A DNA stretch of 64,000 nt from a virus (lineage: Duplodnaviria; Caudoviricetes): IMG/VR virus record IMGVR_UViG_3300022594_000001; one strand, given 5' to 3'. Positions 2,201-57,545 of this stretch are shown in pieces; the first letter of the stretch is position 1, and every line of letters begins with the position of its first letter. Made by a program: the position numbers and the translations under genes. Below the pieces are notes generated by a model that ran no database searches, had not been told where the DNA came from, and was given only the letters and a program-made list of their open reading frames with translations.

Positions 2201-3061
2201 ATGACTGATCGTAAACAATTTGAAGCCATGCTAGAGGCGTTGATCAATGAAGATCAAGAAACAGCAAAAGAGATTTTCCACAATATCGTTGTGGGCAAAT
2301 CACGTGAGATTTATGAAGAATTATTAAAAGAAGACTTCGACTTAGCTGAAAGCGAAGAAGAAGAGGAAGAAGAAAGTTCTGAAGAAGAAGAAAAAGGTTC
2401 TGAAAACCCATTCGGCGGAGACGATGCTGAAGGCGATGACGCTGAAGGTGATGACGCTGAAGGCGATGACGCTGAAGGTGAAGAAGGTTCAGAAGAAGAG
2501 CCATTCGGCGACGAAGAAAGTGAAGAAGAATTCGGCGGCGAAGAAGGCGAAGGCGATATTGAAGATCGCGTTATGGACCTAGAAGATGCCTTAGAAGAAC
2601 TAAAAGCAGAATTTGAAGAGCTAATGTCTCAAGAAGCTGAAGAACCAAATCACGATATCGGTGCAATTGATGCAGCTGGTGACGGTGATGCAGGTGATGA
2701 TTTTGGCGGCGAGCCAGAAGGCGAAGAAGACGAACTACATGCATTCATGGAGTACGTTGACAAAGTAGCTTTACCAAAGCACGGTGATAACGGTGTTAAC
2801 ACTAAGTCTATCGTAGCTGGTAAAAACGATATGGGCGGTACAACTGCTAATATCGCTAAAGGTGGAGAAATGGGTGGCAAAGGCGTACAAAGCGGTTTGC
2901 TAAAGCCAACTACAAAACCACAAACTGGTGGTAACGTAAACGTTCCTGGTGCTAAATCAGCAACTAAACTAAAGCCAGTAACTAAGGGCCACGGTGCTGA
3001 GAAGAAGGGTGCAGGTGAATCTGCTCCTAACACTAAGAGCATTGTTGGGTCACGTAAGTAA
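2201..3061 (+). CDS. Acidic prohead core protein, gp67-like
   Basis: N-terminal helix (FEAMLEALINEDQETAKEIF) followed by a long D/E tract as in T4 gp67. Lies between portal and protease. The C-terminal third is K/G-rich. Confidence 0.65.
   Translation: MTDRKQFEAMLEALINEDQETAKEIFHNIVVGKSREIYEELLKEDFDLAESEEEEEEESSEEEEKGSENPFGGDDAEGDDAEGDDAEGDDAEGEEGSEEEPFGDEESEEEFGGEEGEGDIEDRVMDLEDALEELKAEFEELMSQEAEEPNHDIGAIDAAGDGDAGDDFGGEPEGEEDELHAFMEYVDKVALPKHGDNGVNTKSIVAGKNDMGGTTANIAKGGEMGGKGVQSGLLKPTTKPQTGGNVNVPGAKSATKLKPVTKGHGAEKKGAGESAPNTKSIVGSRK
2417..2476 (+). repeat. In-frame tandem repeat, 4 x 15 bp (GDDAE x4)
   Basis: ggagacgatgctgaa ggcgatgacgctgaa ggtgatgacgctgaa ggcgatgacgctgaa. Confidence 0.9.
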
Positions 3062-3066
3062 TCATT

Positions 3067-3693
3067 ATGCTACATCTTCGAGAAAATCTAAGCTTCAACG
3101 AAGCAAAAATGATCGTTGAATCTGATGACAAAGACGGGAAATCGTTGTATATGTCGGGTATCTGCATTCAAGGCGGTATACGCAATGCAAATCAACGTGT
3201 TTACCCTGTGAAAGAGATTGACAAGGCTGTTAAGACCCTGAACGATCAGATTCAAAACGGTTATAGCGTTCTCGGAGAAGTTGATCATCCTGATGATCTA
3301 AAAATTAACCTGGACCGTGTGTCTCACATGATAACGAACATGTGGATGGACGGTCCAAATGGTTATGGAAAGTTGAAAATTTTACCTACGCCTATGGGAC
3401 AACTAATCCGCACTATGCTAGAAAGCGGTGTGAAATTAGGCGTATCAAGCCGCGGATCTGGAAACGTTAGAGATGACGGATCTGGTGAAGTATCAGATTT
3501 TGAGATTATCACAGTAGATATGGTAGCTCAACCTAGTGCCCCAGGAGCATATCCTACACCAATTTATGAACACTTGATGAATAGTCGAGGGGGATTAAGT
3601 GCCTTACGCATAGCGCAAGAAGTTAAGGGTGACCCGAAAGCACAAAAATATCTCAAAGAGAGCCTATTAGCAATAATTGGCAAACTCCAATAA
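3067..3693 (+). CDS. gp21: Prohead core protein protease, T4 gp21-like
   Basis: Motifs NANQRVYP, LGEVDHP (catalytic His), LGVSSRGSG (catalytic Ser) and DMVAQPSAPGAY. Confidence 0.95.
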   Translation: MLHLRENLSFNEAKMIVESDDKDGKSLYMSGICIQGGIRNANQRVYPVKEIDKAVKTLNDQIQNGYSVLGEVDHPDDLKINLDRVSHMITNMWMDGPNGYGKLKILPTPMGQLIRTMLESGVKLGVSSRGSGNVRDDGSGEVSDFEIITVDMVAQPSAPGAYPTPIYEHLMNSRGGLSALRIAQEVKGDPKAQKYLKESLLAIIGKLQ

Positions 3694-3706
3694 TAAGGAG
3701 AATCAC

Positions 3707-4810
3707 ATGTTGGATGCACTAAAAACGTTATTTGAAAACAATGTGATTTCTACAGAGATCAAAGAGTCAATCGAGCAAGCATGGGAACAGCGTATCGCTG
3801 AAAACCGTGATCAAGTTGCTCAAACTCTACGCGAAGAATTTGCTCAACGCTATGAGCACGATAAAGCTACTATGGTAGAAGCTGTTGACAAAATGTTAAC
3901 AGATCGCCTAGCTGCTGAAATCGCTGAATTTAGTGAAGACCGCAAATCGCTAGCTGAAATGAAAGTTAAGTACGCTTCTAAAATGAAAGCAGATGCTGGT
4001 GTAATGAAGGAATTTGTTACACGTCAACTATCCGCAGAAGTTAAAGAATTGCACGAAGACCAAGTTGCAATGGCTAGTAAGTTCGGTACACTCGAACAGT
4101 TCGTTGTAGAAGCTCTTGCTCAAGAAATTGCAGAATTTTACAAAGACAAACAAGATCTTGCCGAGACTAAGGTACGCTTAGTTCGTGAAGGACGTGAACA
4201 ACTTCAGAAGGTCAAACAACAGTTTGTTGAACGTGCAGCTAAGAAAGTCGAAAAAGTTATTAATGAAGGACTACGTTCTGAATTACATGGCTTAAGAGAA
4301 GACATCGAAGCAGCCCGTCGTAACGACTTCGGTCGTAAGTTATTCGAAGCATTTGCTTCTGAATATCAAACAAGCTATCTTTCTGAGAAGTCAGAAACTG
4401 CAAAATTACTCAAGGTCATAGACATGAAGGACCTAGCTGTTCAAGAAGCTGCTAAAGCTATTGAAGACGCTAATGCCCTAGTAGAAAGTAAACAAGCAGA
4501 AATTGCAGCTTTAAAAGAAGCGCAAGAACGCAAAGAAATCATGAGTGAATTACTTGCTCCACTTAACAGTGAGCAACGTGAGATCATGGGTGAATTAATG
4601 GAGAGTGTAAAGACTACACGTCTAAACGAAAGTTTTGACAAGTATCTTCCAGCAGTCCTAAATGGACATGCAGGTAAAGCTCCGCAGAAGAAACAGGCAC
4701 TTGTAGAGGCAAAAGAAGTTACAGGAAACAAAGTTTCCAACGCAAATCGTAGCGGCGAGAGTGATAGCAATATCGTTGATATCCGTCGCCTCGCTGGACT
4801 AAAAATTTAA
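3707..4810 (+). CDS. gp22: Prohead core scaffold protein, gp22-like (start re-assigned to ATG 3707)
   Basis: Coiled-coil, E/K-rich protein between protease and capsid genes. AAGGAG RBS at 3695-3700 precedes ATG 3707. Ends IVDIRRLAGLKI. Confidence 0.8.
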   Translation: MLDALKTLFENNVISTEIKESIEQAWEQRIAENRDQVAQTLREEFAQRYEHDKATMVEAVDKMLTDRLAAEIAEFSEDRKSLAEMKVKYASKMKADAGVMKEFVTRQLSAEVKELHEDQVAMASKFGTLEQFVVEALAQEIAEFYKDKQDLAETKVRLVREGREQLQKVKQQFVERAAKKVEKVINEGLRSELHGLREDIEAARRNDFGRKLFEAFASEYQTSYLSEKSETAKLLKVIDMKDLAVQEAAKAIEDANALVESKQAEIAALKEAQERKEIMSELLAPLNSEQREIMGELMESVKTTRLNESFDKYLPAVLNGHAGKAPQKKQALVEAKEVTGNKVSNANRSGESDSNIVDIRRLAGLKI

Positions 4811-4821
4811 GGAGAAATTAA

Positions 4822-5982
4822 ATGTCTGAACTACTAAATGGCCGTTGGGCAGAGACTAAAGAAGCTCTTTTAGAAGGCCTACAAGGCACTAAAAAATCTG
4901 TAATGGGAGTTACACTAGAGAACACACGTAAGTACCTAGTTGAAAGCCCAACTGCAGGTGCTACTTCTGCCGGCAACGTTGCCACATTAAACCGCGTGAT
5001 TCTACCGGTTATTCGTCGTGTTATGCCAACCGTTATTGCTAACGAATTAGTTGGTGTACAACCAATGACTGGCCCAGTTGGCCAGATTCATACTCTACGT
5101 GTTCGTTATGCAGATAACGGTACTGGCGTAGTAGCTGGTGAAGAAGCACTATCACCATTCAAGATTGCTGAAGCTTACTCAGGCAATGACAGTTCAACTG
5201 CTAAAGCAGCTTCTACAGCTACTTTAGAAGGACAAGCTGGTAAGCGTATGTCAATTCAAATCTTGAAGCAAACTGTTGAAGCAAAGACTCGTAAGTTATC
5301 AGCTCGCTGGACTTTCGAAGCAGCGCAAGATGCACAAGCTCAACAAGGTATTGACATTGAAGCAGAAGTTATGGCTGCTTTAGCACAAGAAATCACTGCT
5401 GAAATCGACCAAGAGATCCTAGCTAGCCTAGCATCTTTAGCTGGTTCAGCTACTGAAAACTTCGACCAATCTGCTGTATCTGGTACAGCTACATTCGTTG
5501 GTGATGAACACGCTGCTTTAGCTGTTCAAATCAACCGTGTTGCTAACTTGATTGCTCAGCGTACACGTCGTGGTGCTGGTAACTGGGCTGTTGTAAGTCC
5601 ATTTGCTTTAACTATCCTACAATCTGCTACTACTAGCGCATTTGCTCGTACAACAGAAGGTACATTTGAAGCACCTACAAACACTAAGTTTGTTGGTACA
5701 TTGAACAACGCTATGAAAGTTTATGTTAACACATATGCAACTGACTCTACAGACGTATTGATCGGTTACAAAGGTGCTAGCGAATCTGACGCAGCAGCAT
5801 TCTATTGCCCATACATTCCATTGATGAGCAGTGGTGTTGTTCTTGACCCATCAACATTCGAACCAGTCGTATCATTCATGACACGTTATGGTTATGTTGA
5901 GTTGTCAAACACAGCTTCATCTCTAGGTAACGCAGCTGACTACCTAGGTCGTGTAAGCATTTCAAACGTTTCTTTCAAGTAA
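4822..5982 (+). CDS. gp23: Major capsid protein, gp23-like
   Basis: Motifs LPVIRRVMPTVIANELVGVQPMTGPVGQIHTLR, VEAKTRKLSARWTFEAAQD, FYCPYIPL and FMTRYG. Strong RBS and biased codon use. Confidence 0.97.
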   Translation: MSELLNGRWAETKEALLEGLQGTKKSVMGVTLENTRKYLVESPTAGATSAGNVATLNRVILPVIRRVMPTVIANELVGVQPMTGPVGQIHTLRVRYADNGTGVVAGEEALSPFKIAEAYSGNDSSTAKAASTATLEGQAGKRMSIQILKQTVEAKTRKLSARWTFEAAQDAQAQQGIDIEAEVMAALAQEITAEIDQEILASLASLAGSATENFDQSAVSGTATFVGDEHAALAVQINRVANLIAQRTRRGAGNWAVVSPFALTILQSATTSAFARTTEGTFEAPTNTKFVGTLNNAMKVYVNTYATDSTDVLIGYKGASESDAAAFYCPYIPLMSSGVVLDPSTFEPVVSFMTRYGYVELSNTASSLGNAADYLGRVSISNVSFK

Positions 5983-53454: not shown

Positions 53455-54863
53455 TATAAATCTGCCCTAGGTCTTAGTACTTTACTCAACGATTGTCTTT
53501 GTTCAACTTTATTGTTACATAGACTCAATTTCCATGCACCTGCATACGGAACTGCTTGCTGTACTGAACCAACAATTGGCAATGTAATGCGAACCCTGCC
53601 CGCATGATTTGAAATCATTGAAGGATAAGTTGCTGAATCAAAAGCAATTTCTACAGTATCTAATTTAAGAACAACGTATGCAGCAGTTATGTAATCTAAT
53701 GTCGAGTCAATTACATACTGGTTTACAGTTAATGTAACATGATCAACTCCGACAGCATCGTTGTAGATAGCAGTAGTATTATTAATAAAACTAGTTTTAA
53801 GTGTCTGACGCTGATTGTTGTTAGTCATTGTCATGCGTACACTATCTTCTACCTTAACCCATCGAGAACCATCAAATCGAAATAAACGATTTGGCATAAA
53901 ATCTGTGCGTAAAAAATAATCGTCAATTCCGGGAGTGTCTGGAAATTGAATCCCGTGTCCAAATTGTGCTCCAGAATTTAATCCGTTTGGAGCCCATCCG
54001 TCACCGACTAAGTATCCTGTATACCCTGTACGCACTGGAGCTGACGCATTTTCGCTAGCATTGTAAGATTCGTTACTGGCATCTAATGAAGTTTCGTCAG
54101 CAGTCTCAATCCTAGGCTTACCATTCTCGTCAACAGCTAAAGTATAAAATTGTCTAGTCTCATATCCGCTTAATGGAGCGTCTGCTTCTGCTTCTGCAAT
54201 TTCGGCATCGTTGATTGCAATTTCTTTATTAAATGTGCTTAGTAAATCTTTTAAGGTAGTACCGTCAGCCATCGGGTCGCCGTTTGCATCGAGCGCAGCC
54301 TTATTAAAGATGTCTGCAAATTGTTGACTATCGGTTACTTTCTTAAGTTTTAATCTATATAAATGCGGATACCAAGTTACTGAAAACCCTTCACTTGCAC
54401 GGCCTACGTCTTCAATAACATAATAACGAGGTAGCCCTACATCAAAATTGTTAAGAGCAAAATTGTCTTTTAGATGAGGTAATTCTAACACATCACCGCT
54501 CATAGGTTTACGACCAATGTACTTAATAAAATCATTAATATGCACAGTCATAAACAGTGTATCGTTATCGATAAACAAGCCAAATTGGCTTAAATTAAAA
54601 TCGATATTTTGTACGTTGTACATGCCACGGATTCTGTAAACCGACGGATCGTATTTGCGATCACGATTTTCAAGGAACATTAAATCCTGGATTTGTGTAT
54701 GGTCTTTGGCTATTACGTTACCGTTTGCATCCATTGCTTCTGTACCGACGTACTTGTGCAAATAGACGTCTGTACCGCCCGCTTGGAACATTTCTGAGGC
54801 TTGGCGATCTATAAACTTATAGTCGTTGCCTTTTTCTGGTTTATAAAGACTTAATCTTGGCAT
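53454..54863 (-). CDS. gp14: Neck/head-closure protein, gp14-like (start re-assigned to 54863, MPRLSLYKP)
   Basis: GTDVYLHKYVG, LSQFGLFIDNDTLFMTVH, GDVLELPHL and WYPHLYRLK motifs. Preceded on the minus strand by ATAAATA. Confidence 0.7.
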   Translation of the reverse strand: MPRLSLYKPEKGNDYKFIDRQASEMFQAGGTDVYLHKYVGTEAMDANGNVIAKDHTQIQDLMFLENRDRKYDPSVYRIRGMYNVQNIDFNLSQFGLFIDNDTLFMTVHINDFIKYIGRKPMSGDVLELPHLKDNFALNNFDVGLPRYYVIEDVGRASEGFSVTWYPHLYRLKLKKVTDSQQFADIFNKAALDANGDPMADGTTLKDLLSTFNKEIAINDAEIAEAEADAPLSGYETRQFYTLAVDENGKPRIETADETSLDASNESYNASENASAPVRTGYTGYLVGDGWAPNGLNSGAQFGHGIQFPDTPGIDDYFLRTDFMPNRLFRFDGSRWVKVEDSVRMTMTNNNQRQTLKTSFINNTTAIYNDAVGVDHVTLTVNQYVIDSTLDYITAAYVVLKLDTVEIAFDSATYPSMISNHAGRVRITLPIVGSVQQAVPYAGAWKLSLCNNKVEQRQSLSKVLRPRADL

Positions 54864-54870
54864 AGTAGTA

Positions 54871-54890
54871 TATTTATCGCCGCATAAATA
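54871..54890. promoter_or_regulatory. Back-to-back divergent late promoters
   Basis: TATTTAT-CGCCGC-ATAAATA between the divergent gp14-like and gp13-like genes. Confidence 0.7.
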
Positions 54891-54906
54891 TGTATGGAGA
54901 CTAAAA

Positions 54907-55674
54907 ATGTCAGAACTTAATTCAACAACAGAGCGCAATAAGGTATTTGATTATGTACGCACTATGCTAGGCGATGGCATGGTCGAAGTAGAGCTTGATC
55001 CAAAACACCTAGAAATTGCCCTAAATCGCGCAATTAACAAATTCCGTCAACGCAGCTCAAATTCCGTTGAAGAAAGTTATATGTTCCTGGAACTAATCCA
55101 GGATCAAAACGAGTACCGCTTGCCCGACGAAGTGATCGAAGTGAGAGAAGTGTTTAGAAGAGCAATTGGAAGTAGAAGTGGGTTAGGTGCAGGCGGTACC
55201 CTTTTTGAGCCATTTAACTTAGCATATACAAACACCTATTTGTTAAGCGGAACTATGATGGGCGGACTAGCAACATACGAAATGTTTGCTGGATACCAAA
55301 AATTAGTAGGACGTATGTTTGGTAGCTATATTGAATACAAGTGGAAGCAGCAAAACCATACTCTTACAATACTGCAAAGACCCTTTGCAGCAGGCGAACA
55401 GATACTGTTACGTACATACAACTACCGCCCTGATTACGTGCTGCTAGACGACTTATACGCAAAGCAGTGGCTATATGATTATACCTTAGCAGTGGCTAAA
55501 TTACAACTAGGCGAAGCACGTAGCAAATTTGCTAGTATTGCAGGCCCTGGCAGTCCGATTACTCTTAACGGTACTGCACTATTGCAAGCTGGCAAAGAAG
55601 AAATTGAAAAACTTGAAAAAGAAATTATGGATATGGTTCCAGGCGGAGTACCATACACATTTGTGTTAGGATAA
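54907..55674 (+). CDS. gp13: Neck/head-tail adaptor protein, gp13-like
   Basis: VFDYVRTMLGDGMVEVELDPKHLEIAL, YRLPDEVIEVREVF, WLYDYTLAVAKLQLGEARSKF and ITLNG..LLQAGKEEIEKLE motifs. Confidence 0.8.
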   Translation: MSELNSTTERNKVFDYVRTMLGDGMVEVELDPKHLEIALNRAINKFRQRSSNSVEESYMFLELIQDQNEYRLPDEVIEVREVFRRAIGSRSGLGAGGTLFEPFNLAYTNTYLLSGTMMGGLATYEMFAGYQKLVGRMFGSYIEYKWKQQNHTLTILQRPFAAGEQILLRTYNYRPDYVLLDDLYAKQWLYDYTLAVAKLQLGEARSKFASIAGPGSPITLNGTALLQAGKEEIEKLEKEIMDMVPGGVPYTFVLG

Positions 55675-55677
55675 TTT

Positions 55678-55728
55678 ATGAGCATAAGACATTACATTGA
55701 GATTGTAGAAGCAGGAGGAGAGCAATGA
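55678..55728 (+). CDS. Unannotated 16-aa mini-ORF MSIRHYIEIVEAGGEQ, coupled to the next gene by an ATGA overlap
   Basis: ATG at 55678 and TGA at 55726-55728. It contains the GGAGGAG RBS of the 55725 gene. Confidence 0.45.
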   Translation: MSIRHYIEIVEAGGEQ

Positions 55729-56549
55729 AAATCAACGAAGTAACTCGTAGAGGATTTTTAAAAGGTGTTGCAGGTCTCGCTGCCGCAACAGCTCTACCCG
55801 TAAATACTATTGAAAAACTTGCTAGTGCTTCGCATGTTACTCCGGAAAATCTTAATATTTTCTCTCAAATGGTTCAAACAACTAATCTCAAAACAGCATC
55901 AAATTTTGTTAAAATGTGGGTTGATGCTGGTACTATTGCAGATGTTCATCCCCGCGAAGATTTAAAAGCAGTGTGGAACGCTATAAAGGATTTTCCAGAA
56001 TTTAAATATAGCACTTGGCAAAGTGCAGTATCAGAATACATGGAAGATCATGACATTCCGGAAATTGAACAATTAATCGGACGAGAATTAGAAGTATCAA
56101 AAATTTTTAATATTATTAACTCTCACAACCTTGATAGCGAAGACTTTTCTCAAGATGTATATAAATTTCAATCAGAATTAGTTAATAAAAATGTTACTGA
56201 TAGTACTCAATGGGGACATGATTGGGAAATAAGTAAACCTACTGCATCTAATACAGTATCTAAAACAGTATCTAATGTTGCAAGTGATGCAAGAACCGCA
56301 GTTACTGCGTCTAAACTTCCGGGTAATATTACCAAAGCCGTAGGCGCATTGAAGACATTATATAACAAGTTTGCTGCTCATGCGGATCGCAAATCAGCTG
56401 ACAAAACTGATCCTACGCAGTCACATACACCTGACGCACTTCCAGCACCGACACATGCTGCACTTCCATCACCGTCGCAATCAGAGTTTGATTTAACACC
56501 GGATTTGAGCAGAATTAAAGATCTAGCTGGCATTAAGAAAAAAGGCTAA
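55725..56549 (+). CDS. Protein with an N-terminal twin-arginine (Tat) signal-like motif, putative internal head protein
   Basis: MKINEV-TRRGFLK-GVAGLAAATALP matches (S/T)RRxFLK followed by a hydrophobic stretch. The C-terminus is DLSRIKDLAGIKKKG. Confidence 0.6.
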   Translation: MKINEVTRRGFLKGVAGLAAATALPVNTIEKLASASHVTPENLNIFSQMVQTTNLKTASNFVKMWVDAGTIADVHPREDLKAVWNAIKDFPEFKYSTWQSAVSEYMEDHDIPEIEQLIGRELEVSKIFNIINSHNLDSEDFSQDVYKFQSELVNKNVTDSTQWGHDWEISKPTASNTVSKTVSNVASDARTAVTASKLPGNITKAVGALKTLYNKFAAHADRKSADKTDPTQSHTPDALPAPTHAALPSPSQSEFDLTPDLSRIKDLAGIKKKG

Positions 56550-56556
56550 CAAATAT

Positions 56557-56586
56557 TTGACCCCTCATAGGACTGTAATATATACT
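56557..56586 (+). promoter_or_regulatory. Sigma70-like promoter for dNMP kinase
   Basis: TTGACC (56557-56562), an 18-nt spacer, then TATACT (56581-56586). Confidence 0.55.
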
Positions 56587-56608
56587 ACATCTTATTGAGG
56601 GGTTTCTT

Positions 56609-57304
56609 ATGATTATAGGCGTATGCGGTTTTATTGGGTCTGGCAAAGATACTATTGCTGATTACCTTACAAATTTCCATGGATTTAGAAGAGAAAGTTT
56701 TGCCAACAGTTTAAAAGACGCAGTAGCGCAAGTCTTTGGTTGGGACAGAACAATGCTAGAAGGGCGCACTAAACAAGCCCGTGAATGGCGAGAACAAGTA
56801 GATCCGTGGTGGGCAGAACGCCTAAATATGCCTAACTTAACTCCTCGTTGGGTACTACAATACTGGGGCACTGAAGTATGTCGCAAAGCATTCCACGATG
56901 ATATTTGGATTGCATCCTTAGAAAACAAACTCCGCAATAGTAAAGACGATATTGTTATTAGCGACTGTCGTTTCCCTAACGAAATTAAATCAATTAAAGA
57001 AGCTGGCGGTATTGTTATTCGTGTAAAACGCGGCCCTGAGCCAGAATGGTACCGTGATGCTGCTGATGTTAATGCTGGCCCTAAATGCCTAAATTGGGCA
57101 CTAGCAAGTGGCAGGATGTCAAAGCTAAATATTCATGCTAGTGAAACTGCTTGGGTAGGGACTAAGTTTGATGCAATACTAACAAACGATGGTACTATAG
57201 ATGAGCTTATGGGTAAGGTTAAAGATCTGGTGTTAAACCGCCCTGTTTCCACTTCACACCCTCTCGATGAAGCAGCCGCTGACAATTTGAACACACTGTC
57301 TTAA
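56609..57304 (+). CDS. gp1: Deoxynucleoside monophosphate kinase, T4 gp1-like
   Basis: P-loop IIGVCGFIGSGKDT, then FANSLKD, TPRWVLQYWGTEVCR, VISDCRFPNE and HASE motifs. Confidence 0.9.
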   Translation: MIIGVCGFIGSGKDTIADYLTNFHGFRRESFANSLKDAVAQVFGWDRTMLEGRTKQAREWREQVDPWWAERLNMPNLTPRWVLQYWGTEVCRKAFHDDIWIASLENKLRNSKDDIVISDCRFPNEIKSIKEAGGIVIRVKRGPEPEWYRDAADVNAGPKCLNWALASGRMSKLNIHASETAWVGTKFDAILTNDGTIDELMGKVKDLVLNRPVSTSHPLDEAAADNLNTLS

Positions 57305-57545
57305 GATTTGTATGACGGCAATTGTTTAAATCGCCGTCTACATGAAACACGTCGAACACCTCTAGATAAGGGCTTTTAAAACCGCACTTATCGCAGGTGT
57401 TTTTCTTTTTATATCCAGCAAGGTGCCACCGAGGGTTTTTGACACCTCTAGCACAAAACCCACATTGTCTCCTATAGAATGCCTTGCTATTTTTGTAATA
57501 ATTAATGGCTACTGGGTGTCTTCCACATGAACATAATGGTCTCAT
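57219..57545 (-). CDS. Zn-finger/HNH endonuclease-like protein
   Basis: CxC, CxxC and CxxC motifs, then VFHVDGDLNNCRHTNLKTVCSNC (beta-beta-alpha-Me-like). A minus-strand TTAAATA motif lies at 57550-57556. Confidence 0.7.
   Translation of the reverse strand: MRPLCSCGRHPVAINYYKNSKAFYRRQCGFCARGVKNPRWHLAGYKKKNTCDKCGFKSPYLEVFDVFHVDGDLNNCRHTNLKTVCSNCQRLLHREGVKWKQGGLTPDL

Follow-up and report, generated by a model that had tools for sequence, protein, structure and literature searches.

The phage proteins known to be injected into host cells, among them the internal proteins and Alt of phage T4, act in the cytoplasm. Of the general export routes, only twin-arginine translocation (Tat) takes finished, folded proteins, and in other phages the C-terminus of the scaffold protein is the usual coat-binding end. 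In T4, the prohead protease gp21 cuts after L/I-x-E (PMC9026906); this specificity, the 10-residue capsid-targeting sequence (CTS), the delivery of CTS fusions into the host and the C-terminal propeptides on Alt and gp21 have been documented (PMC9026906, PMC3012670). Targeting of IPIII requires hydrophobic residues at CTS positions 4 and 7 (PMC9026906).

The DNA analyzed here is a 64,000-nt window of IMG/VR record IMGVR_UViG_3300022594_000001, part of a 111-kb contig (G000) from an uncultured freshwater jumbo phage that is placed in the T4-like RaK2/PA5oct/Atu_ph07 superclade. The protein under study, P0001 (274 residues), is encoded by an open reading frame (ORF) at 55725-56549 on the plus strand, and is compared throughout with its homologs and with a complete 338-kb relative of the phage (G003). 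P0001 carries a short leader ending in a protease-type site, a twin-arginine signal directly behind it, and a C-terminal tail resembling the end of the phage's own scaffold. We propose that it may be a head-packaged accessory of the internal-protein type that is re-addressed by host Tat after ejection, and we put this a little short of an even chance. Packaging in the head is, from the motifs, likely.

P0001 shares several features with T4 IPI, IPII, IPIII and Alt. Its contig encodes a T4-type S77 protease and a scaffold; the gene is small, accessory, late and situated in a variable slot; the leader ends in I-x-E, the leaders of its homologs are very like MKTYQEFIAE, and C-terminal propeptides have precedents in Alt and gp21. 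Unlike the T4 proteins, P0001 has a leader of only five residues, neither position 4 nor position 7 holds a targeting residue, and it bears a Tat signal, which none of the T4 internal proteins has. Its likely loading tag is instead the C-terminal scaffold-like tail, it has no sequence similarity to them, and its presence in the virion is a prediction.

The twin-arginine signal and its family

The frame, start and translation of P0001 given in the first-pass annotation agree with the sequence. The start codon is the first in-frame ATG, with no other in-frame start upstream, and lies 4 nt behind a Shine-Dalgarno sequence (AGGAGGAG; 55713-55720, +). A gene on the opposite strand was considered and dropped, as the ORFs there reach only 51-53 residues. 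The idea of a lipoprotein was likewise discarded, since P0001 contains no Cys.

The twin-arginine consensus T-R-R-G-F-L-K spans residues 7-13 (55743-55763, +), exactly where the first-pass annotation had placed it, with the arginine pair at residues 8-9 in an N-terminal position. Both curated models score above their cut-offs, Pfam TAT_signal (PF10518) with 25.0 bits (cut-off 22.7) and TIGR01409 with 19.9 bits (cut-off 16.7). In a six-frame Tat search of the 111-kb contig, P0001 is the sole match over the cut-off (28.5 bits, E = 2.8e-7), and the same search of the complete 338-kb relative returns only the P0001 homolog (E = 3e-5). The consensus is followed by the hydrophobic (h-) region of the signal, GVAGLAAATALPV (55764-55802, +), with 13 uncharged residues and a near-invariant Pro25; the full uncharged stretch, GVAGLAAATALPVNTI, is 16 residues long with a mean Kyte-Doolittle hydropathy of 1.39. 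Across homologs, an Ala-rich uncharged stretch and then a Pro come after RRG. The h-regions of the family have 11-20 uncharged residues and mean hydropathies of 0.7-1.9; that of P0012 has only 7 and is interrupted by Arg. The P0001 motif is thus very likely, by these sequence measures, a true Tat-type signal. No TatA/B/E genes were found in the contig or in the complete relative.

Compared with bacterial Tat substrates (S/T-R-R-x-F-L-K; PF10518, TIGR01409), P0001 has the full consensus, a short polar n-region and a moderately hydrophobic, Ala/Gly-rich h-region ending in Pro. It departs from them in its origin in a lytic phage, its position in a virion-gene unit and the location of its signal behind a protease-type site. 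The signal is also internal in the large homologs, there is no conserved A-x-A site, and the cargo is not a cofactor-binding domain.

At least 23 metagenome contigs, the longest of 345 kb, encode exactly this protein. An exhaustive HMMER search retrieved 14 distant homologs (21-33% identity), all from metagenomes of uncultured phages; IMG/VR added further members with their context, and a profile search one more. The contigs of P0002 and P0013 are too short for gene context. All aligned members share R8, R9 and G10, and nearly all keep F11 and P25; Pfam TAT_signal recognizes 12 of 13 family members (E <= 0.01). Searches of P0001 by tblastn and of its locus by megablast against 50,697 phage records gave no match. 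A word-indexed protein search returned P0001 alone when queried with P0001, and four proteins when queried with the family profile. That profile has no match in Vibrio phage 2.275.O, PA5oct or Phosso, and hmmsearch with it of PA5oct, of both phage sequences compared here and of 80 loci sharing the slot found no further member or paralog. PHROGs contains no family matching P0001. An IMG/VR scan by alignment of leader and signal only yielded two extra loci, from other phage types.

In four homologs (P0013, P0015, L016 and L017; ORFs of 782-1147 residues) a P0001-like unit, Tat signal included, is embedded 160-385 residues inside a modular protein. The embedded units are collinear with P0001 from the RR motif to an EFD(L/M)TPDL patch, and their arginine pairs, at residues 163-385, stand directly behind L-D-E or L-G-E. 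Being internal, the signal in these proteins would be functional only after proteolysis. A further buried Tat signal, unrelated to these, was noticed in a different type of phage (L228, IMGVR_UViG_3300008050_007120; ORF, ~958-1017), where a long modular ORF with repeated GGRVGYAEGDP(E/K)GV units has an internal Tat-like signal, VTRRGFLKGAGGLGIMAMIPG, right after one repeat.

Candidate protease site and scaffold-like tail

The leader M-K-I-N-E (55725-55739, +) ends in a candidate prohead-protease site, I3-N4-E5. In all 20 members from S77-type contexts, [LIVM]-x-E is found 2-10 residues before the arginine pair, in leaders that are otherwise highly variable. Some homologs have leaders like the T4 CTS (MRISEIIVE, MKIKELIE and MKAAEFLLE, compared with MKTYQEFIAE in T4 IPII/IPIII), and several have a short MRLDE. 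The start MKIN(D/E) is common to P0001 and the PA5oct virion protein gp333, and T4 gp24 begins similarly. L020 (MDITRRGFLKGC) is the only member without a leader and without [LIVM]-x-E; no S77 match was found in its 42.7-kb genome, which is only ~70% complete and hence a weak natural control.

The enzyme presumed to cut the P0001 leader is the T4 gp21-type S77 prohead protease at 3067-3693 (+; PF03420, E = 3.9e-27; phrog_207, E = 4.4e-58). Sites of the same type mark other head proteins of this phage. The coiled-coil scaffold protein, identified by phrog_10922 and by its position between the protease and major capsid genes (3707-4810, +), contains 18 [LI]-x-E sites where shuffling predicts 7.0 (P < 0.001). 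The gp23-type major capsid protein (4822-5982, +; PF07068, E = 3.9e-99) has Y-L-x-E at residues 38-41 (4933-4944), of which Y38, L39 and E41 are invariant in 24 sequences; it is the likely maturation site and lies where one would expect a propeptide to be cut off.

Leaders of this type also occur beside two of the large homologs. Three consecutive genes (L016:950-1996, 2254-3810 and 3812-4576, with equivalents in L017) lie upstream of the polyprotein that holds the P0001-like unit; they begin MRAREFVRE, MRSKEFIVE and MKSFEFLKE and contain LysM/endolysin-like and M23-peptidase/baseplate-hub-like domains. Their products are enzymes directed at the cell wall that bear capsid-type leaders.

The C-terminal tail of P0001, LTPDLSRIKDLAGIKKKG (56493-56546, +), is a scaffold-like candidate capsid-loading peptide. 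The protein ends in RIKDLAGIKKKG, with R-I-K-D-L-A-G-I-K-K as its tail, and a tail of the type R-I/M-K-D-L-A-G-I-K is present in 10 of 13 aligned homologs. The first-pass annotation had likened this end to that of the scaffold, and the likeness holds up: within the 111-kb contig, [ILM][RKQ]xL[AS]G[ILV] is found in two ORFs only, the scaffold and P0001, and at the extreme C-terminus of both. The scaffold copy, IVDIRRLAGLKI, comprises its last 12 residues (4772-4807, +), which are invariant in homologs; 120 close homologs and ~80 further loci all share the end I-(V/I)-D-I-R-R-L-A-G-L-K. The tail is retained among superclade scaffolds with overall identities of only ~29-43%, as MKRLAGLK in the 338-kb relative, LRRLAGIK in PA5oct, LKRLAGIKK in Atu_ph07, ERNAGIHKK in Munch, SILSGIIKK in RaK2, SRNAGISKNR in CBB and INAGIKKN in SCTP-2. 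P0001 shares with these scaffolds (phrog_10922) the C-terminal pattern hydrophobic-x-(R/K)-x-L/N-A/S-G-I/L-K(K) and nothing else; it has no coiled coil and no enrichment in [LI]-x-E. Two unrelated leader-bearing proteins beside the L016 and L017 homologs end in MRFLAGLIKD and MRLLAGLTGK, and in P0004 the motif stands in the N-terminal leader instead (RIRKLAGIISE), followed by the cut site and then by the arginine pair.

As scaffold C-termini usually bind the coat, a copied scaffold tail is plausible as a loading tag. Encapsulin cargo-loading peptides offer an analogy, and only that, in that a short C-terminal peptide on an unrelated cargo directs it into an HK97-fold shell; the system and the motif are different, and binding of the P0001 tail to the capsid is putative. 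A complex prediction for the capsid protein with P0001 residues 215-274 scored 0.14 (mark 0.32), which is evidence neither way. Similar motifs, (I/M)-(R/K)-x-L-A/S-G-(I/L/V), were also noted at N-terminal, internal and C-terminal sites of several jumbo-phage proteins, in PA5oct (NC_071039) at 127321-128817 (gp281), 131940-133430 (gp278), 155092-155844 and 234078-235190, and in the 338-kb relative at 53896-54162, 54123-57428 and 253372-253965. Some of these proteins are virion components confirmed by mass spectrometry, and the pattern may be a general short docking motif.

The first-pass annotation had looked to the co-occurrence of leader, RR and LAG(I/L) motifs in homologs, and the family displays it, with RRG invariant, the protease-type site always ahead of it in S77-type contexts and the tail in most members. 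All of these motifs are short, so one may ask whether they are look-alikes that arose by chance and address the protein nowhere. This is the least probable of the explanations considered, to the point of being scarcely credible: each genome yields a single Tat match at the E-values given above, RRG is invariant across proteins only 21-30% identical, and among the ORFs of the contig the tail motif ends only P0001 and the scaffold.

The late unit and its variable slot

P0001 is the second gene of a short transcription unit. The first is a gp13-type neck/head-completion (Ad2) gene at 54907-55674 (+; phrog_211 head-tail adaptor Ad2, E = 1.1e-34), which PF26809 (Phage_T4_gp13) matches in other contigs, and the gap between the two is 50 nt. 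A late-promoter-like box, CATAAATAT, lies 23 nt before the gp13 start (54884-54892, +), and none lies before P0001. The pattern [ACT]TAAATA[TC][AGT], recognized by its enrichment upstream of starts, has 19 copies in the window, 8 of them no more than 70 nt ahead of a start on the same strand, where ~0.7 would be expected; the copy before gp13 is the probable promoter of the unit. The T4 late promoter TATAAATA was rejected as the element in use here, as it has 2 matches against 7.7 expected, and the shorter TAAATA box takes its place. The P0001 stop codon is followed by an intrinsic terminator, a hairpin with TTTCTT (56559-56608, +; dG -22.4 kcal/mol, z -4.95, none of 200 shuffles as good). The next gene, for a deoxynucleoside monophosphate (dNMP) kinase (56609-57304), has a sigma-70-like promoter of its own. 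Taken together, the gp13 box, the 50-nt gap, the strong terminator and the separate kinase promoter place P0001 at the end of a late virion-gene transcript, and its assignment to a late gp13 unit in the first-pass annotation stands. Two elements of the kinase gene, its sigma-70-like promoter (TTGACC-18-TATACT) and a TAATATATACTA box, lie inside the hairpin at 56557-56608, such that the P0001 terminator and the dNMP kinase promoter are nested within one element.

The position behind gp13 was surveyed in 80 related loci whose gp13 is 60-95% identical. In most, dNMP kinase directly follows gp13, as in PA5oct, and the slot is empty. When occupied, it frequently contains small genes whose products begin with CTS-like leaders, including ClpS-like proteins (MNIRELISIVE, MKIREIIKE), DUF6321 proteins (MKVNEIISE) and a family of 125-130 residues with MKIYEIITE and similar leaders; elsewhere 2OG-Fe(II) oxygenases or fibre-like genes are found. 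With contents that vary in this way, the slot is comparable to the loci where T-even phages carry their internal-protein genes. The complete 338-kb relative has nine genes with CTS-like leaders, and its P0001 family member heads a run of three. Among PA5oct proteins, gp333 (MKINDIITE, between portal and protease), gp279 (MKLFEVFTLYE) and gp281 (N-terminal ILRLAGV) are virion proteins confirmed by mass spectrometry.

Two further observations concern this locus. The ClpS-adaptor-like slot proteins (PF02617, E = 1e-14; L022:3984-4415, L023:2799-3197 and L024:4772-5191) raise the prospect of a head-packaged, injected ClpS mimic, which is of interest because protease-trimmed injected proteins expose new N-termini. 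In T4 (NC_000866: 73591-75374; L229) the gene order is 1 (dNMP kinase), 57A, 57B and ipI, which puts ipI three genes from the dNMP kinase gene; P0001 lies directly beside its own. The shared neighborhood may be a remnant of a common variable locus or a coincidence.

Two rival explanations bear directly on these findings. P0001 might be an ordinary phage Tat substrate, made late, exported at once from the producing cell to the periplasm or inner membrane, for example to time lysis or exclude superinfecting phage, and never packaged; the [LIVM]-x-E and LAGI motifs would then have some other purpose. An N-terminal signal that is unmasked from synthesis, with the arginine pair at residues 8-9 as in most short homologs, and the scores of both Tat models above their cut-offs speak for this explanation. 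It leaves unexplained why a protease-type site is strictly kept in a variable leader, why homologs have full CTS-like leaders and, in four large proteins, an internal signal, why the protein has a scaffold-type tail, and why the same slot holds neighbors with CTS-like leaders. We consider it unlikely, while giving it more weight than any other rival. Alternatively, the twin-arginine helix might tether the assembling prohead core to the inner membrane until cleavage at I-N-E frees it. T4 proheads are indeed built on the membrane and leave it once gp21 has processed them (PMC9026906), and in P0001 the cut site lies between leader and hydrophobic segment. However, the gene is accessory, with no homolog in any of the 80 related loci that share the same head genes (profile search included), which already suggests that heads assemble normally without it; an h-region of 13 residues is rather short to anchor a protein stably, and even after the cut the protein would still be attached through its C-terminal tail. 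A tether is accordingly rated very improbable.

The remaining features lie around this unit and the head genes. The window also holds the portal gene (95-1831, by protein-family matches) and genes for gp15, gp13, sheath and tube. An HNH-endonuclease-like ORF of 108 residues (57219-57545, -) shares 86 nt with the 3' end of the dNMP kinase gene and is kept at the same position in most relatives. Between portal and protease, an ORF of 286 residues (2201-3061, +) is extremely acidic and of low complexity, with runs of E, D and G; since its PA5oct counterpart is the virion structural protein gp332, it probably acts as an accessory of the core or scaffold, as T4 gp67/gp68 do. Approximately 3.2 kb before the window start (G000:C1:73380-74147, -; also L103:3381-4148), a protein of 255 residues with the leader MKVREIIVNE has several long hydrophobic Gly/Ala-rich segments and no Pfam family. 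Its gene adjoins a 743-residue tape-measure-like gene just upstream of the portal, and the protein may be membrane-active and ejected.

A proposed course from prohead to periplasm

AlphaFold2 on the family alignment predicts an all-helical domain, with the remainder of P0001 disordered except for a short helix in the tail. The globular cargo domain covers approximately residues 30-155 (55812-56189, +; predicted local distance difference test, pLDDT, 84-95 over residues 41-150 and lower at the edges). A Ser/Thr/Ala/Pro-rich linker with a conserved L-P-A-P patch follows (56190-56492, +; pLDDT <50). The domain has neither a family match nor a usable fold match in the collections searched: Foldseek of the model against the PDB gave a best E of 0.25, shape matches in the ESM Atlas stayed below a template-modelling (TM) score of 0.5, a wide VIA-align search reached a best Z of 4.1, and a protein-atlas feature look-up returned no match.

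On the packaged-and-re-addressed reading, P0001 would be made late from the gp13 transcript, as the promoter motif and the terminator suggest. It would enter the prohead core by its scaffold-like tail, perhaps also by its short leader, and the S77 prohead protease may then trim it after I-N-E. Like the T4 internal proteins, it would leave the head with the DNA. In the new cell, TRRGFLK, now at the N-terminus, would be recognized post-translationally by TatBC, and the small helical domain would be moved across the inner membrane to its periplasmic face, where it might serve, for example, in superinfection exclusion or envelope remodelling. That Tat takes folded proteins fits a protein that arrives ready-made.

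Several observations weigh against this sequence of events. P0001 begins MKINEVT, with Asn4 and Thr7, so that the hydrophobic residues of the CTS at positions 4 and 7 are missing. The first-pass annotation had taken MKINE for a T4-type targeting leader; its I-x-E site is conserved and an S77 protease is present, yet it amounts to only half a CTS, which makes the C-terminal scaffold-like tail the better candidate for the loading tag. A leader of five residues cannot hide the Tat signal, and export could therefore already occur in the producing cell; Tat n-regions tolerate short extensions, and with the signal unmasked such export would compete with packaging. The body of P0001 is neither enriched nor depleted in [LI]-x-E. 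Only ~7 residues make up the tail likeness, the P0001 tail is not among the top matches of a profile trained exclusively on scaffold tails, and LAG-type motifs also lie at N-terminal or internal positions in other proteins, leaving the role of the tail as a tag putative. None of the cultured phages searched has a member of the family. Finally, Ala-Ser-Ala occupies residues 33-35 of P0001, where homologs have VKS, IDT or IKI in the same column; a helix is predicted around these residues, and those after Pro25 form a conserved helix in the AlphaFold2 model. An Ala-Ser-Ala that is not conserved, together with a conserved helix after Pro25, makes processing by signal peptidase doubtful. The earlier proposal of a packaged and then Tat-exported protein consequently survives in part: the surveyed motifs and the S77 protease support it, while the half CTS, the unmasked signal and the unconserved Ala-Ser-Ala do not.

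The lack of a conserved signal-peptidase site also leaves room for docking without translocation. The protein would then be packaged and ejected as proposed, and its twin-arginine peptide would bind TatBC or the inner membrane, where it might block host Tat export or hold the ejected protein near the DNA entry site. Such docking shares the packaging evidence set out above, and in the model the helix after Pro25 is joined to the folded domain. Against it, the motif and the length, hydropathy and Pro of the h-region match real export signals in every testable respect, and uncleaved Tat signals are known among true substrates. We regard docking alone as improbable.

Re-addressing by Tat after ejection, if true, would constitute a two-step delivery route from virion to periplasm that has not been described for any phage; a full-text literature search found no paper that connects Tat signals to phage proteins targeted to the capsid or ejected. 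With a Tat address, a packaged protein would seed the periplasm or inner membrane of the new host within seconds, before phage gene expression, and could there exclude competitors, change the envelope or counter envelope-based defences. It would further provide a natural example in which an export signal is used at another time and in another cell than those of its synthesis, a use that in the large homologs would be gated by proteolysis. The scaffold-mimic tail would be a new portable encapsidation tag, and the conserved scaffold tail offers a simple candidate means of directing foreign proteins into the heads of jumbo phages. More broadly, and with greater reserve than for P0001 itself, we suggest that T4-like jumbo phages may load accessory head proteins by interchangeable end-tags, namely an N-terminal CTS-type leader, a C-terminal copy of the scaffold tail, or both, and that some of these passengers may be forwarded by Tat to the periplasm after injection.

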